Source: Dictyostelium discoideum (lineage: Eukaryota). Taken from it: 5,179 nucleotides of DNA. Of the stretch, positions 1-5,179 are shown in pieces. The position numbers were made by a program, and so were the translations under genes. Numbering within the stretch: the stretch's first letter is position 1; each line of letters opens with the position of its first letter. The notes under the pieces are model-generated. The model saw nothing but the letters and a program-made list of their open reading frames with translations. It was not told where the DNA came from and searched no databases. The stretch is taken from positions 1 through 5,179 of the forward strand of contig CH709174.1 of NCBI GenBank assembly GCA_000004695.1, read 5' to 3'.

Positions 1-163
1 TTGTCTCCTCAAAAAGCCCGAAGTAGTCGGTGGCTAACCACAGCCCAACTCACCTTTTGCTCAGGATTTACCCTAAAGGCTATTAACTTTATAACCTCAT
101 CTTTGAGTGCGATTAGCTTTCCTTTTAAACCAGCAAGCTTTCTTGGGGAGCAACAATCTAGTT

Positions 164-955
164 TTAAAAGTTTCTTATTTCCTTGATGACACTTTTCTTC
201 TTTTCTTTGGGAACAAGAAGCTTCATTGATTTTGAATCGATTTGTAATCCGAGAAATGTAATTGATTGAGTTGGTTCAAGAACAATCTTTTCTAGATTCA
301 GCTTGAAACCTAGTTTGACAAGTAAGTCCATTGTCTTTTTGAGGTTGGATAAACATTCTTCTTTTGTTGAACCGACGATTAATAGATCGTCCAAGTAAGC
401 GATTACGGACACGTTGATATCTCTCAACATTCGAAGTACATGTCTTAACAACATTGTAAAGATACGAGGAGCTGTCGATAACCCGAACGGCATTGTTTTC
501 CAACGGTAGTGCGAACCTTTCCACACGAAGCGGAATAAGTCTCTGTATTGCGGATCTACTAAAACGTGGAGGTAGGCTTTCTTGATATCGAGTTTTACCA
601 TGTAATAACCTTGTTTGACCATTGATGGTAGATTCTTGATTCCTTCCATCTTGAATGATTGGTTGTTGATGTAAGTGTTTAACCTTTTTAGATCGAGAAC
701 TGGACGATGTAGATTCGTTCCAGGTTTTGGAACCGTAAACACGTTGGAGTAAAAAACGCGCTTTGAATAACGGTTTGGAAGTACTTGTTCGATAGCATCG
801 TCTAATAACAAGTCTTGTACTTCCTTTGTGATGCAATCTGATTTCGGACCCTCTGGAATTGAAATCGGAATTGGGTTTGGCATCGGCTTGAAATTTGGAA
901 GTAAATGGATTTTTAATCCATTTACGACCTCTTGACAAAAGTTTGGAAGACCCAA
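164..955 (-). CDS. Reverse transcriptase domain of a retroelement pol ORF. RT blocks 1-7 are all present. The ORF ends at a premature stop (KEIRNF*) and the reading continues in another frame below position 164.
   Basis: The translation contains the canonical RT motifs FTVPKPGTNLHRPVLDLKRLN, KLDIKKAYLHV, MPFGLSTAPRIFT, the YXDD box VIAYLDDLLIVG, LVKLGFKLNLEK and ITFLGLQID. The frame differs from the upstream gag-like ORF, which is the usual gag/pol frameshift arrangement. Confidence 0.85.
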   Translation of the reverse strand: MGLPNFCQEVVNGLKIHLLPNFKPMPNPIPISIPEGPKSDCITKEVQDLLLDDAIEQVLPNRYSKRVFYSNVFTVPKPGTNLHRPVLDLKRLNTYINNQSFKMEGIKNLPSMVKQGYYMVKLDIKKAYLHVLVDPQYRDLFRFVWKGSHYRWKTMPFGLSTAPRIFTMLLRHVLRMLRDINVSVIAYLDDLLIVGSTKEECLSNLKKTMDLLVKLGFKLNLEKIVLEPTQSITFLGLQIDSKSMKLLVPKEKKKSVIKEIRNF

Positions 956-1005: not shown

Positions 1006-2007
1006 TTACTTCTTGTTCTTCTGAAAACGGTTGTTGGTACCGTTGGCAGACTTGGTATTGTTGCTACCTGATGCAACATTACTTGGTGACCCATTGAAGT
1101 TGTTAGATCGGCCATTACTCCCACTACTGGATTTACTATTACTACTGTTTCCTGTAGTGTTATTACCACTTGAGTTAACTGATTTCTTGACATTGGACTT
1201 GGAATGATAATTCAATTTTAAAAATGATTGTTTAGCTTCGTTGTTCTTTCTGATTGACTTGGCTAGCTTTCTTACACGTTCAGTTTCAGTTTCATCAAAC
1301 ATCTTTGGTGTATCCTTGATCTTAATTGGTAAGAGTACTTCAGAACCATAGATTTCTTTAGCGATGTTGTTACGACGGACACGACTAAGCGATGCTTGAG
1401 CATTAACGGCTAAGATGATTGCACTCTGAGTTAAGTAACTAATAAGTTCTACATCGACATTAGAGCTATCAGATGATAACATACTTGATATGAGAAGCAA
1501 AGGTTTTAAGCTATCGTTGATTCGCTTTTCGACAATCAACAAGTCAGTATCATTGTTCTTGACGTTGGATGATACAGTAATACCTTCAGGTGTACCGAAT
1601 GGAGCGACATTCACTTGGAAGTTAGATGGAAAGTTGAATACTTTATTCAATTCGGATATCTCATCTTTCTTGAGGATACATTCTTCTTCGACGAGTAAAC
1701 CTTGATTGTTAACCATATGTTTGTACTGACCAAGTAAGGTATCGGATAATTGATAATCGGTTGGAACATCGACATTGTTACTTGATTCATCTTCACTTTG
1801 TTCATTCTCGGTGTCAGAGTTATCATGAGAAGGTTGGCTACGTGAATTAGATGAGAACATAGGTTCTTTCATGAATCTTGTAAAGGCTAAGGAAAGGTTG
1901 TTGATTTGATCCTCCATTGATTTCATTCTTAAATCAAAGGATTCAGAACTATTAAAGGCAGAGGTACTACTACTAGAGGCTTCATTATTATTAACAGTGG
2001 TAGACAT
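1006..2007 (-). CDS. Gag-like ORF1 of the retroelement. It has no CCHC zinc knuckle and ends in an Asn/Ser/Gly-rich low-complexity tail.
   Basis: A 333-aa ORF lies immediately 5' of the RT on the same strand, in a different frame. Its C-terminus is basic and low-complexity (NSSGNNTTGNSSNSKSSSGSNGRSNNFNGSPSNVASGSNNTKSANG...RFQKNKK). This composition is typical of dictyostelid proteins, and the absence of a CCHC motif is consistent with a DIRS-type Gag. Confidence 0.6.
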   Translation of the reverse strand: MSTTVNNNEASSSSTSAFNSSESFDLRMKSMEDQINNLSLAFTRFMKEPMFSSNSRSQPSHDNSDTENEQSEDESSNNVDVPTDYQLSDTLLGQYKHMVNNQGLLVEEECILKKDEISELNKVFNFPSNFQVNVAPFGTPEGITVSSNVKNNDTDLLIVEKRINDSLKPLLLISSMLSSDSSNVDVELISYLTQSAIILAVNAQASLSRVRRNNIAKEIYGSEVLLPIKIKDTPKMFDETETERVRKLAKSIRKNNEAKQSFLKLNYHSKSNVKKSVNSSGNNTTGNSSNSKSSSGSNGRSNNFNGSPSNVASGSNNTKSANGTNNRFQKNKK

Positions 2008-2099: not shown

Positions 2100-2220
2100 A
2101 TCTTAAATATTTATAGGAGGAATTCCCAAATAAAATAAATCAAATTGTTTTAGTTTTTAGTGCCACTATTTATACGTTTTATTTTCTTAAAAATTTCGCA
2201 AAACTCAAAAAAATAAGTGT

Positions 2221-2326
2221 TTTCGACCCTTCACAACTTTGTGCATTGTGTCGGTTCGGAATTTTTATTTTTTTCGACCTTGCACAATTATCGCGTCATT
2301 GTACCGGTTCGAAATTTTTACTTTTC
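2221..2326. repeat. Two tandem, imperfect ~52-bp repeats within the putative terminal-repeat region
   Basis: tttcgacccttcacaactttgtgcattgtgtcggttcggaatttttattttt is followed by tttcgaccttgcacaattatcgcgtcattgtaccggttcgaaatttttacttttc, with roughly 80% identity. A third partial start, tttcgaaaa, follows at 2326. Confidence 0.8.
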
Positions 2327-2348
2327 TTTCGAAAATTTTTTATTCTTC

Positions 2349-2366
2349 GAATGTTCTAGAACATTC
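2349..2366. promoter_or_regulatory. Perfect 18-bp palindrome gaatgttctagaacattc, which is four contiguous alternating nGAAn/nTTCn pentamers (a heat-shock-element consensus array)
   Basis: Read in 5-bp units, cGAAt gTTCt aGAAc aTTCt gives four consecutive perfect pentamers. The site lies ~340 bp upstream of the retroelement ORF1 start on the minus strand. Confidence 0.7.
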
Positions 2367-2389
2367 TAAAAAATTATCTTAAATATTTG
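2349..2389. repeat. Left copy of a 41-bp inverted repeat (IR-L)
   Basis: gaatgttctagaacattctaaaaaattatcttaaatatttg matches the reverse complement of 4403-4443 at 39 of 41 positions. Confidence 0.9.
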
Positions 2390-2587
2390 GGAAATTCAAA
2401 TAAATAAATGTTATTCATAATATATATATATATGATAATATAAATTCATAATCTGAAGCCATTACAACCCATTATTGATGAACTTTCTAAGAAGCACTAC
2501 AGTAAGTAGTTCTTTTTGACAAAGGTCTTCGATAATATGAAATACCAAGGGATTTTTCTAGGTTCGTTTAATTAAAGAGGACCTATC

Positions 2588-2692
2588 ATGCAAAACACCA
2601 ACGCGGAAAAACTTCAACAAGAAGTATATCAGCATTCGAATATTAATTCATGCGACCCACCAAACTTACTAAATAGACTCCGGCTTCCTTGA
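2588..2692 (+). CDS. Small 34-aa ORF (MQNTNAEKLQQEVYQHSNINSCDPPNLLNRLRLP) preceded by a strong Shine-Dalgarno-like motif. Function unknown.
   Basis: AAAGAGGA at 2574-2581 lies 6 nt upstream of the ATG at 2588. The ORF sits upstream of the ATP-grasp-like ORF. It is too short to appear in the ORF track. Confidence 0.3.
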   Translation: MQNTNAEKLQQEVYQHSNINSCDPPNLLNRLRLP

Positions 2693-2809
2693 GTCGTTTA
2701 GCCAGCGTGATTGATTATATCCGTCAATACGAAGCAAAAACCGTTGCGTAACTATTTGGTCAGAGTGGGAAAACAGCTCTGACTTTATGCCAGCCTATGG
2801 AGTAAAGTC

Positions 2810-3298
2810 ATGAAAATCATTGTACAAGCACATGGCACAAACGTATACCATCGGGAAGAACAAAAAGTCCATGATTATGTTAAAGACTTTATTCCGTTGG
2901 GTTTATCGCAGCTAAAAAAGAAAACTGATCTCATTGAATCCGCCGTTTGGTTATGTGAGGTCGTGGAGTGGGGTAGCGAATGGCAGTTCTACTTACAGGA
3001 TGATGTAGTTGTCTACAAGGCACCGTATAAAGGAGCCACAAAACCAGACATCCGTATTGTAGATGACATGATACAGAGGCTCCAGTACTGTTCTACTGGA
3101 CCTAATACCTACGCTTTAGATGTAGATGTACTAAGTTCAGGTAAAACTGCATTAATAGAAATGAATGATGCATTTGCTGTCAGCGCCGAGACATTCCCGC
3201 AGACATCTATACTGAATGGTTATTCTCTCGCTGGAATTCGTAAATGGCGTAATCCAGGAGTTTTCAGGTCTACATCATCAAGGTGTAGATGTGAATAA
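2810..3298 (+). CDS. ATP-grasp fold protein (C-terminal catalytic-domain-like), 162 aa. It may be a truncated or short ATP-grasp ligase.
   Basis: The segment YALDVDVLSSGKTALIEMNDAFAVSAE resembles the conserved ATP-grasp C-terminal motif (..GVDxx...G...vlEvN..P..), and it is preceded by an E..R-containing beta region. GGAG lies 7 nt upstream of the ATG. The stop codon of an upstream reading frame overlaps this RBS. Codon usage is enterobacterial or phage-like. Confidence 0.55.
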   Translation: MKIIVQAHGTNVYHREEQKVHDYVKDFIPLGLSQLKKKTDLIESAVWLCEVVEWGSEWQFYLQDDVVVYKAPYKGATKPDIRIVDDMIQRLQYCSTGPNTYALDVDVLSSGKTALIEMNDAFAVSAETFPQTSILNGYSLAGIRKWRNPGVFRSTSSRCRCE

Positions 3299-3330
3299 AA
3301 CCCCCTGTAATAACTGAAAAAGGAAATACC

Positions 3331-3624
3331 ATGTCCGATGTAATCGCACAACAAAACCAACATGCTGTTCAGCAGTATCCAAATGAAATTCCATCAGGAA
3401 TTACATTGTTCATCGAGTTTGTTCATAGCGCTCTGGGAAATCTGCAAGAGAAATCCTTGCTGCCGGACCTGGTACCCACTACTCGCGGTGTAGTCGTTCG
3501 TCAGGAAAACCAAAACCCACTGAATACGTTGTCTGCGGTTGCCCCAACCGTCCTGAACATTTACGGTAACCAAAGGCCATCGCCCTGTGTGAATGCCGCA
3601 CCGCATCTGCTCTATCTGGCCTAA
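3331..3624 (+). CDS. Hypothetical protein, 97 aa. The same frame stays open through two in-frame TAA codons as far as 3930, so this may be a nonsense-interrupted pseudogene or a longer gene.
   Basis: AAGGAA lies 5 nt upstream of the ATG. Codon choice is strongly ctg/ccg/cgt/gcc. The frame continues open from 3625 to 3780 with the same codon bias after the TAA at 3622-3624. Confidence 0.45.
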   Translation: MSDVIAQQNQHAVQQYPNEIPSGITLFIEFVHSALGNLQEKSLLPDLVPTTRGVVVRQENQNPLNTLSAVAPTVLNIYGNQRPSPCVNAAPHLLYLA

Positions 3625-3852
3625 GATCTGCTGTGTACCGGTCTGATCGATGCCGAGTGTTTAGCGCTGTATAGCCCGATTCAAACCAACAACACCATCC
3701 CAATACGTTCCCGTCATGCCAAACCTGACTGGATTGTACTGCAGAGTCCAACTACGAAGAACTTATCAAAACTTATCAGGTAACTCAGGACTCTCCGTTC
3801 CGTTAAAATAACTTTATTGCAAGGATTGAAAAAGCTTGATCTTAGTTTAGTT

Positions 3853-4242
3853 ATGGCGTTAGTATTCATGGTTACTGGTTTCGCTACTGATATCACCCAG
3901 CGTGTAGGCTGTGGAATCGAACACTGGTAGTAACTATTTCTCTACAACAACTCAAGGCGAAGAAGTTGCGATCGAGTGTTTGAATAGTACAGTCGTTGCA
4001 AGTATCACTTATGCAGACGGGCGCACCCTCTAAAGGTGATCCTATTGGGGTCTACACGGAAAATGGTGTCTTTGTCTTATCTTGCAAATCGCAGTCCGTT
4101 GCAGTTCGTAAACAGTTCTGGGGATATTATCCAGTCTGCTAAAGGACAATTGCAATTTGCAAGTACCGTGGGTGAGTCCTGCGTGTATTCAGCAACCAGT
4201 CTAGGAAAGTTATTTAAAGACATTGGCTCTAACTGTAATTAA
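3853..4242 (+). pseudogene. Possible decayed gene for a small secreted, Cys-containing protein. A signal-peptide-like N-terminus is followed by short ORFs in successively +1-shifted frames.
   Basis: The sequence (L)KKLDLSLVMALVFMVTGFATD... resembles a signal peptide. Four ORF segments of ~100 nt each (ending at 3930, 4033, 4142 and 4242) run in frames 1, 2, 0 and 1 with plausible peptide sequences, for example GDPIGVYTENGVFVLSCKSQSVAVRKQFWGYYPVC. Overlapping open frames could also arise by chance at this GC content. Confidence 0.25.
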
Positions 4243-4402
4243 CCATTAAGCCGCTCCTTAATTGGGGCTGCTGTTTCACTTGAGGTTATTTTTTATGTTC
4301 TCACACATTGTGGCCATGCACCCTACCTTTATCAATTTCAGAAATCGAAGCGGTTATTGGTCAATATCGTGTTTGCGTACTGTATAACTTTGCCTCTGGT
4401 GA

Positions 4403-4443
4403 CAAATATCTAAGACAATTTTTTAGAATGTTCTAGAACATTC
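4403..4443. repeat. Right copy of the 41-bp inverted repeat (IR-R). Its outer 18 bp (4426-4443) is the same HSE palindrome.
   Basis: The reverse complement of 4403-4443 is gaatgttctagaacattctaaaaaattgtcttagatatttg, which differs from 2349-2389 at 2 positions. Confidence 0.9.
4426..4443. promoter_or_regulatory. Second copy of the perfect HSE palindrome gaatgttctagaacattc
   Basis: aGAAt gTTCt aGAAc aTTCa gives four perfect pentamers. It is identical to 2349-2366. Confidence 0.7.
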
Positions 4444-4459
4444 AAAAAACACAGCGGCT

Positions 4460-4498
4460 TTATAAGTATACTTTATAAGTACTACTTAATAAGTACAC
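4460..4498. repeat. Three tandem ~13-bp units (tttataagtatac / tttataagtactac / ttaataagtacac)
   Basis: The units are seen directly in the sequence. Confidence 0.8.
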
Positions 4499-4536
4499 TT
4501 ATTAATATATATTAATAATTAATTATTATTCTTTAA

Positions 4537-4652
4537 AATGTTTTATATGTGAATTGAACCCGCGACCTCCCTTTTCAGAAGTTCCGAGGTGGGGAATGTT
4601 TTATATGGGAATCGAACCTGCGACCTCCCTTTCCGGAAGTTCCGTTTAGAGG
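4537..4652 (-). repeat. Two tandem 58-bp units, each containing a tRNA 3'-half or B-box-like motif (GGTTCGATTCC on the minus strand). They resemble extra-B-box elements downstream of a tRNA.
   Basis: Units 4537-4594 and 4595-4652 are ~85% identical. The reverse complement of each contains GAGGTCGC(A/G)GGTTC(G/A)ATTC, which matches the T-arm/B-box consensus GGTTCGANTCC. Each unit also carries a GGAAgTTCC inverted repeat. Confidence 0.6.
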
Positions 4653-4660
4653 AAAAAAGT

Positions 4661-4728
4661 TGCATATGGGAATCGAACCCGTGACCTCTTAAATTAAGCT
4701 ATCTCTCTACCATATGAGCTAAATAAGC
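4661..4728 (-). pseudogene. tRNA-derived pseudogene or tRNA-like element. It is followed on the minus strand by T6, a Pol III terminator-like run, at 4654-4659.
   Basis: The minus-strand reading is GCTTATT TA GCTC ATATGGTA GAGA ... CTTAA T TTAAG AGGTC ACGGG TTCGATT CCCAT ATGCA. The D-arm TAGCTCATATGGTAGAG (A14, G18G19 and A21 present), the variable loop AGGTC and the T-arm are all tRNA-like. The anticodon loop is reduced to 1 nt, the acceptor stem does not pair, and the total length is ~68 nt, so this is not a functional tRNA. Confidence 0.5.
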
Positions 4729-4797
4729 TTTTATTATTTTTCAATATTAATAGCTGAAATATTAATGTAAAAAATTTAAAAAAAATAATAAAAAAAA

Positions 4798-4927
4798 TGA
4801 AACTATAAAACATAAATAAAATGATATGTTTTATTTTTTAATTTAAAGTTGTATAAATGTTTGTGAATACACTGAGAAATAATATTCAGAATATTTCTGA
4901 AACTATAAAACATAAAAAAAATGATAT
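4798..4927. repeat. Pair of 30-bp direct repeats (tgaaactataaaacataaa[t/a]aaaatgatat) at 4798-4827 and 4898-4927
   Basis: 29 of 30 positions are identical. The interval between the copies contains a 6-bp-stem inverted repeat, tcagaa tat ttctga, at 4886-4900. Confidence 0.8.
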
Positions 4928-4976
4928 ATTCAGAATAATATAAAGAATAACATAATCTTTCTAAAAAACTTATAAT

Positions 4977-4980
<4 letters not shown>

Positions 4981-5009
<29 letters not shown>

Positions 5010-5179
5010 CCCAAAATATAATGGATCCATTGGGGGTAAAAAACCATGGATTTTTTAAAAAAAATTTAAATATTTTTTGGGGGGGCGAAAAAAATTCCAA
5101 AAAAAAAAAAAAAAAAAAAAATTTTGGGATTTTTTTTTAAACACAAAAAAAAAAAAAAAATTGGGAAATTTTTTTTTTT
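4981..5179. other. Homopolymer-dominated terminal stretch (T30, A22, A16, G7 and others). It probably reflects low sequence quality or an assembly-end artefact.
   Basis: The stretch has T30 at 4981-5010, A22 at 5101-5122, short palindromes aatggatccatt and ccatgg, and no coding potential. The only ORF here, on the minus strand, is poly-Lys read from poly-T. Confidence 0.6.

Follow-up and report, generated by a model that had tools for sequence, protein, structure and literature searches.

The window analysed here, a whole unplaced contig of 5179 bp (CH709174.1) from the Dictyostelium discoideum AX4 reference assembly, contains a foreign, phage-like block of 1957 bp (2446-4402, forward strand, 42.4 % GC; hereafter the cargo), which is set apart by its composition and by its lack of homology to DIRS-1, the retrotransposon whose sequence lies on both of its sides. 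We regard this cargo as an inert and decayed fragment of phage-derived DNA that resides in the DIRS-1-rich repeat DNA of AX4, and put the probability of this reading at roughly 0.65. An earlier note, made from the letters of this DNA, had seen in the 41-bp inverted repeats around the block the possible ends of a mobile or horizontally acquired cassette. As detailed below, both repeat arms are ordinary sequence of the DIRS-1 inverted terminal repeat (ITR), the left of these ITRs ends at its natural terminus directly at the cargo, and the cargo gene with phage relatives is a dead remnant of an R2K ATP-grasp gene.

The inverted repeat itself is real. Its arms (2349-2389 and 4403-4443) are inverted copies of each other that agree at 39 of 41 positions, with 2 mismatches, and 0 of 200 dinucleotide-preserving shuffles yielded any match at all, so that none is expected by chance; the repeat stretches to 47 nt at 91 % identity (2343-2389 and 4403-4449). 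Two further statements of the earlier note were likewise confirmed, namely that the outer 18 bp of both arms (GAATGTTCTAGAACATTC; 2349-2366 and 4426-4443) form a perfect palindrome and that a target-site duplication is absent, the left arm being flanked on its outer side by TTCTTC and the right one by AAAAAA. Neither is there a target-site duplication when 2445/2446 is compared with 4402/4403.

The left arm (2343-2389, forward strand) lies within a DIRS-1 ITR, 56 bp from the ITR tip. For comparison we used two loci of one D. discoideum assembly (L002 and L003) and one locus from a Logan run (L004), all with DIRS-1 copies. By nucleotide alignment, positions 98-2445 on the reverse strand are the 5' portion of a DIRS-1 retrotransposon, comprising the left ITR, ORF1 (the first open reading frame, ORF) and the start of the reverse transcriptase (RT) ORF, and cut inside the RT at 98; this stretch is 96-97 % identical to five DIRS-1 copies in L002 and L003 (over ~2370 nt) and to L004 (over 2003 nt). 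In a multiple alignment of the ITR region, the left ITR (2119-2445, reverse strand) reaches its natural outer terminus (...GATAATATAAAT) at 2445, the same nucleotide at which five other left ITRs stop before running into unrelated flanks. Since the ITR of the window ends only there, 56 bp further out, the left arm is not a terminus, and the foreign block begins at 2446 and not at 2390 or 2568. The supposed symmetry, in which the two arms bracket the unit, was therefore not borne out, as DIRS-1 homology passes the left arm by these 56 bp. Positions 2135-2452 align to right-hand DIRS-1 ITRs as well. Throughout the L002/L003 alignment, left and right DIRS-1 ITRs have a common repeat body and a different outer tip, left ITRs ending in ...TATGATAATATAAAT and right ITRs going on with ...TAT-TTAATATAAAATATAATTTAATAAATTAAATTTTTAAT, and the tip tells from which end of the element a solitary ITR derives.

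The right arm is part of an orphan 47-bp fragment of a DIRS-1 ITR in inverted orientation (4403-4449, reverse strand, with the palindrome at 4426-4443), recognised through ITR alignments. Its ITR homology starts abruptly at 4403, which corresponds to an internal ITR position, and stops at 4443-4449. This fragment matches eight places in L002 and L003, and does so at ITR positions only, which rules out that the arm represents the internal complementary region of DIRS-1. Furthermore, two T>C changes set it apart from the left arm as well as from every other ITR copy examined. These changes mark the right arm as a diverged fragment in its own right that was not copied from the left one, and were the reason to reject an origin as a hairpin or template-switch artefact of the left arm.

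The exact 41-mer, proposed to mark the ends of a cassette, was found in six other, plain ITRs of L002 and L003, all of them without cargo, and this finding takes away the ground on which the cassette had been proposed. Together with the 96-97 % homology of 98-2445 and the ITR-only matches of 4403-4449, it identifies both arms as ordinary DIRS-1 ITR sequence. The inverted symmetry is thus that of two ITR pieces in opposite orientation and not a recognition structure, and the inverted repeat probably had no role in the acquisition of the cargo.

A heat-shock element is defined by at least three contiguous alternating nGAAn/nTTCn pentamers. As read from the sequence, the 18-bp perfect palindrome GAAtgTTCtaGAAcaTTC, which by its nature has no strand, is made of four alternating nGAAn units and satisfies this consensus at 2349-2366 as well as at 4426-4443. 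DIRS-1 is reported to be heat-shock responsive, with heat-shock-induced transcripts, and its ITRs have promoter activity (PMC3950715).

The phage affinity of the cargo comes from the one gene that could be recognised in it (2810-3298, forward strand), which is annotated as DDB_G0294348 (XP_628723.1, UniProt Q54AM2; the protein record is 100 % identical). Its product matches PF18299 R2K_2 with E = 4.4e-16 and 59.5 bits (Pfam gathering score 26.2), though only at profile positions 50-139 of 147, and PF14243 R2K_3 with E = 2e-11 and 44.8 bits (gathering score 26.3). The domain match thus places it in R2K, while the complete domain with its N-terminal core and an intact C-terminal frame are both missing. 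Its nearest relative (P0002), a protein of 235 aa with 62 % identity, is encoded on a phage-like Logan contig from SRR25779728 (L001; 3519 bp, 41 % GC), where its neighbours are a phrog_11676 protein (E = 7.9e-34) and a polynucleotide-kinase-like PHROG. In turn, alignments with proteins of Klebsiella phage YC1 and Burkholderia phage FLC9 cover 98-100 % of P0002, and that with a protein of Erwinia phage AH06, which is annotated as an ATP-grasp, covers 78 % of it. These phage homologues have ~240-300 aa, and YC1, FLC9 and AH06 are all jumbo phages of 250-320 kb. Between L001 and the window, the ATP-grasp gene alone is held in common. Both also have an ORF of 97 aa directly downstream of that gene, the two 97-aa proteins being unrelated to each other.

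Compared with these relatives, the ATP-grasp gene of the window is severely damaged. An internal deletion at ~2941 has removed 87 residues (P0002 45-131), including the F[IV]KP...K.FTGFV...DYR block that is conserved in four of four full-length proteins (P0002 and the three jumbo-phage ones). In addition, a frameshift at ~3187-3192 leaves the last 17 residues of the family (IPADIYTEWLFSRWNS, P0002 216-232) in another frame. Having lost 87 residues with the conserved core, and with its C-terminus out of frame, the gene is a dead remnant.

The remaining cargo ORFs are orphans. Shine-Dalgarno-like motifs, as reported in the earlier note, precede the ATGs at 2588 (AAAGAGGA), 2810 (GGAG) and 3331 (AAAGGAAA). 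Pfam and PHROG scans of the cargo ORFs other than the ATP-grasp gene gave nothing credible, and the same scans detected neither a transposase nor a recombinase domain among the ORFs between the arms. The first ORF (2588-2692, forward strand, 34 aa, AAAGAGGA 7 nt upstream) has no family match, and its reading seems to go on in another frame, which suggests a frameshift. Behind the ATP-grasp gene, the 97-aa ORF with a Shine-Dalgarno-like motif (3331-3624, forward strand) lies in a frame that stays open for 52 more codons past the stop. An exhaustive HMMER search of this ORF among 1.84 billion representatives returned two matches only; the proteins matched have 2062 and 862 aa and are highly repetitive internally, with 6-7 matched stretches each, and for this repetitiveness both matches were judged spurious. 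This case illustrates how an orphan ORF can reach E = 3e-10 against tandem-repeat proteins to which it is unrelated. Further downstream in the ORF map, four short ORFs follow one another in a staggered row, each in a frame shifted against the last (3853-4242, forward strand), a layout that suggests one gene broken by frameshifts; a frameshift-repaired version of 132 aa found no homologue. The cargo ORFs end at a weak terminator-like hairpin followed by a T-rich tail (4253-4268, forward strand), of a kind found at 2 sites against 1.3 expected, and the promoter and terminator scan of the cargo did not rise above the shuffled expectation.

With respect to base composition, the contrast between the block and its surroundings is less uniform than had been described. 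The statement that everything outside is ~80 % AT holds for the ITR (22 % GC) and for 4450-5179 (23 % GC), but not for the coding part of the left DIRS-1 copy (98-2007), which at 37.5 % GC stands nearer to the cargo with its 42.4 %.

Searches for a donor had no success. At the DNA level and with a threshold of 65-70 % identity, the cargo matched nothing among phages, plasmids and 5,426 E. coli genomes, so that the enterobacterial or phage contaminant considered in the earlier note found no counterpart there, and peptide-pattern and degenerate motif scans for ATP-grasp relatives in GTDB, IMG/VR and JGI metagenomes returned nothing. Hence, a near-identical donor is absent from these collections, Klebsiella strain collections lying outside the DNA-level search.

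The quality of the adjoining DIRS-1 copy bears on the question of whether the cargo truly belongs to the Dictyostelium genome. Its gag-like ORF1 (1006-2007, reverse strand, 333 aa) is intact and 97-98 % identical to the 335-aa ORF1 proteins of D. discoideum, which are the closest among 209 relatives, almost all from Dictyostelium. Relative to the L002/L003 copies, 98-2445 has 25 private substitutions, of which 16 are GC>AT and 2 AT>GC, as expected for real mutational drift of an AT-rich genome and not for read error. Another diverged copy (L002, 2643-5008) has 13 GC>AT and 5 AT>GC changes, and this bias is usable as an internal measure of drift and copy age in DIRS-1 clusters. The RT ORF fragment (164-955, reverse strand; PF00078 RVT_1, E = 4.7e-28) is frameshifted, as its A-run near 165-170 is 1 nt shorter than in four other DIRS-1 copies (AAAA versus AAAAA), and stops at 164. 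As the homology stops at 98, the tyrosine recombinase ORF, the internal complementary region and the right ITR are not on the contig; the left DIRS-1 copy is therefore a 5'-complete fragment and not a complete element. The AX4 annotation of the same contig contains DDB_G0294346 (541 aa, partial, RVT_1), in which ORF1-derived and RT sequence are fused in one product.

Taken together, we favour a real residence of the cargo in Dictyostelium repeat DNA, and three lines of argument lead us there. First, the DIRS-1 copy gives way to the adjoining DNA precisely at its natural terminus (2445), as is characteristic of the integration junction of a retroelement; a random ligation or assembly break would rarely fall there, and the left junction thus looks biological. 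Second, DIRS-1 ITR sequence lies on both sides of the cargo, and a location inside a DIRS-1 cluster fits this arrangement. Third, the intact ORF1 and the 25 private substitutions with their 16:2 GC>AT bias speak for good sequence quality, and for this reason the lesions of the cargo are probably real; read errors as their source can be dismissed by the same signature. A live contaminant should carry intact genes. D. discoideum has ~40 intact DIRS-1 copies and 200-300 fragments, and the element forms clusters and inserts into other copies of itself (PMC3950715). The contig is, as expected for such clusters, a mosaic of whole and fragmentary pieces, and orphan ITR scraps like the right arm are common in them. 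Among the explanations offered in the earlier note, a cargo caught between the terminal repeats of DIRS-like elements came closest, as there is indeed a DIRS-1 copy with a natural ITR end on the left; on the right, however, only the 47-bp scrap is present.

That the cargo resides in the genome, in which sequence the events ran and how the DNA entered are inferred, and we propose the following course. Foreign phage DNA, plausibly from ingested bacteria, would have been inserted where an ITR, or the DNA beside it, was broken, through illegitimate end-joining, and the 47-bp scrap at 4403-4449 may be what this event left of an ITR fragment. At a later time, a DIRS-1 element would have integrated at 2445/2446 via the pathway of circular intermediates and tyrosine recombinase, without a target-site duplication, and this copy might have been truncated at 98 afterwards. 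Such a scenario as a whole, in which a jumbo-phage-like fragment was taken up by a bacterivorous amoeba, integrated in DIRS-1-rich (probably pericentromeric) DNA, decayed, and received a DIRS-1 insertion at its edge, appears to us reasonably probable.

The most serious rival is a chimeric clone or assembly, in which repeat fragments of Dictyostelium were joined, by co-ligation or mis-assembly, to contaminating DNA of a phage or bacterium between them, to give a small contig that could not be placed, and several observations weigh on its side and against a fossil of foreign DNA. Tiny unplaced contigs of Sanger assemblies are a class enriched for artefacts, and the 5179-bp contig analysed here closes with ~200 homopolymer-rich bases of low complexity that resemble the tail of a poor-quality read. 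Along its length, the type of sequence changes abruptly at least four times (97/98, 2445/2446, 4402/4403 and ~4449/4450). The cargo occurs in no other Dictyostelium dataset searched: its protein forms a cluster (P0001) of one member from one contig, and a homologue is annotated in 0 of five newer assemblies of D. discoideum or D. cf. discoideum. An exact-protein look-up of the cargo ORFs and of the DIRS-1 ORF1 of the window in an assembly index gave no record; as this index does hold Logan and NCBI contigs with D. discoideum DIRS-1 ORF1, the missing cargo record counts against residence. Between the ITR tip and the first ORF preceded by a Shine-Dalgarno motif lie 142 bp of 33 % GC (2446-2587), which could be Dictyostelium DNA that hides a chimeric joint and would then weaken the argument from the terminus. 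The cargo also lacks an obvious drift to AT, its 42 % GC being close to the 41 % of the contig of its relative (L001), and the lesions suggested for the orphan ORFs are read from the ORF layout, as these ORFs have no relatives for comparison.

Nevertheless, we consider a chimera unlikely. The junction between DIRS-1 and the cargo is an exact natural ITR terminus, and with DIRS-1 ITR sequence at both sides, two independent random joints would each have had to hit an ITR. Moreover, the one cargo gene that can be compared is deleted and frameshifted, although the DIRS-1 part has the signature of real mutations and not of read errors, and the supposed contaminant has no match in E. coli, plasmids, phages or GTDB. 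The chimeric assembly considered in the earlier note is thus disfavoured by the exact terminus, the decayed genes and the lack of a donor, with a possible joint within 2446-2587 as one point in its favour.

It is much less probable still that DDB_G0294348 is a functional, horizontally acquired gene, expressed and possibly under heat-shock control by the flanking palindromes. Such a role might be read from its open ORF of 162 codons, which is annotated as a protein, from the palindromes of heat-shock-element consensus on both sides and from the promoter activity of DIRS-1 ITRs (PMC3950715). However, the gene has lost the KP...FTGFV...DYR core, which each of the four full-length relatives possesses, and the frame of its C-terminus is shifted, its neighbouring ORFs look fragmented, and there is no eukaryote-style adaptation, as Shine-Dalgarno-like motifs are kept and GC stays at 42 %; nor did we find a paper that mentions DDB_G0294348 or Q54AM2.

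Finally, a mobile element or cassette with prokaryote-like cargo, whose 41-bp terminal inverted repeats are recognised by a transposase, is scarcely tenable in spite of the highly significant 39/41 inverted repeat around the block, as the arms are an ordinary subsequence present without cargo in every ITR examined, the left arm lies 56 bp inside its ITR and is no boundary, a target-site duplication is absent, the stretch between the arms encodes neither transposase nor recombinase, and the collections searched held no second copy, the cargo gene being confined to one contig. Arm, cargo and arm are not mobile as a unit, since neither transposase or recombinase between the arms, nor duplication, nor another copy was found. 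What persists of the earlier proposal is the foreign origin, attested by an R2K ATP-grasp with relatives in phages, and not the mobility, as the 41-mer is internal to ITRs.

Returning to the decayed phage fragment that we favour, its parts resemble several known systems to different degrees. The element at 98-2445 is a copy of the tyrosine-recombinase retrotransposon DIRS-1 (Tdd-1), with which the contig shares the ITR sequence of the arms, the heat-shock-element-like palindrome and the mosaic of the cluster type. In contrast to a typical DIRS-1, this copy is cut in the RT at 98 and has neither recombinase ORF nor right ITR on the contig, the right arm is a 47-bp scrap, and the flank is non-DIRS foreign DNA instead of another DIRS-1 copy. 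The cargo protein resembles the R2K ATP-grasps of the jumbo phages YC1, FLC9 and AH06, to which it is 30-40 % identical and with which it shares the C-terminal LDVGVLSSGxTALVExND; unlike these, it lacks 87 residues including a block of nucleotide-binding type, has a frameshifted C-terminus, and lies on a eukaryotic contig without the usual phage neighbours. Compared with DNA transposons bounded by terminal inverted repeats, the window likewise has a pair of inverted repeats around a segment of ~2 kb, but the block has no duplication, transposase or other copies, and its repeats are borrowed from the ITR of a retrotransposon, the left one not even being terminal.

Gene transfers from bacteria to Dictyostelium, as well as fossils of foreign DNA in regions rich in transposable elements, are known in eukaryotes, and the host is a phagotroph that eats bacteria. 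The cargo shares with such transfers the presence of prokaryote-type DNA within amoebal repeat DNA. It differs in being decayed and not domesticated, in its Shine-Dalgarno-like signals and prokaryote-like GC, in looking derived from a phage and not from a bacterial chromosome, and in a residence that is deduced from its surroundings. The repeat is thus known biology, a heat-shock-type palindrome in the DIRS-1 ITR, and the cargo adds a further example to the known DNA fossils gained by horizontal transfer, made somewhat unusual by its phage affinity.

If this reading is true, the contig would preserve a physical fossil of phage-to-eukaryote transfer and would suggest that retrotransposon clusters serve as tolerated landing pads for ingested DNA. 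Provided that the cargo truly belongs to the genome of AX4, it would offer a concrete and datable case of phage DNA that entered a phagotrophic eukaryote and was parked in a retrotransposon cluster. It would also be a counterpart, without selection, to the small number of bacterial genes that are known to have been domesticated in Dictyostelium. Should it instead be an artefact, DDB_G0294348 (Q54AM2, "ATP-grasp domain-containing protein") should leave the proteome, as it could seed false calls of horizontal transfer. Either way, ordinary DIRS-1 biology suffices to explain the inverted repeat, without recourse to a new kind of mobile element.

The outer parts of the contig add three further features. 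At its start, positions 1-97 (44 % GC, no strand assigned) are not DIRS-1, as the homology breaks at 91-98 within the RT region, where other copies run on; a search with window positions 1-100, made as a vector test, gave no match in plasmids or E. coli genomes. This segment joins DIRS-1 at an internal RT position and may represent additional foreign DNA, a different repeat or the low-quality beginning of a read.

To the right of the orphan ITR fragment, three tandem units of 58-61 bp (4537-4720, reverse strand; repeat families D2 and D4) look like tRNA 3' halves. All three contain a B-box-like motif of the form GTTCRANNC (GGTTCAATTC, GGTTCGATTCC and GGTTCGATTCC), and a D-arm-like AGCTCATATGGTAGAGA lies ahead of the third unit. 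ARAGORN found no tRNA in the right flank, and Rfam found a T-loop match only. By their sequence, these units may stem from a tRNA gene that has decayed and whose external B boxes were duplicated; such boxes would be potential TFIIIC sites and targets of TRE elements (for comparison, see PMC5391098). Lastly, ~4950-5179 mixes long A/T homopolymers with GGG/CCC runs and words resembling BamHI and NcoI sites (ggatcc, ccatgg), and it is this stretch that contributes most of the "inverted repeats" in the repeat listing of the window.

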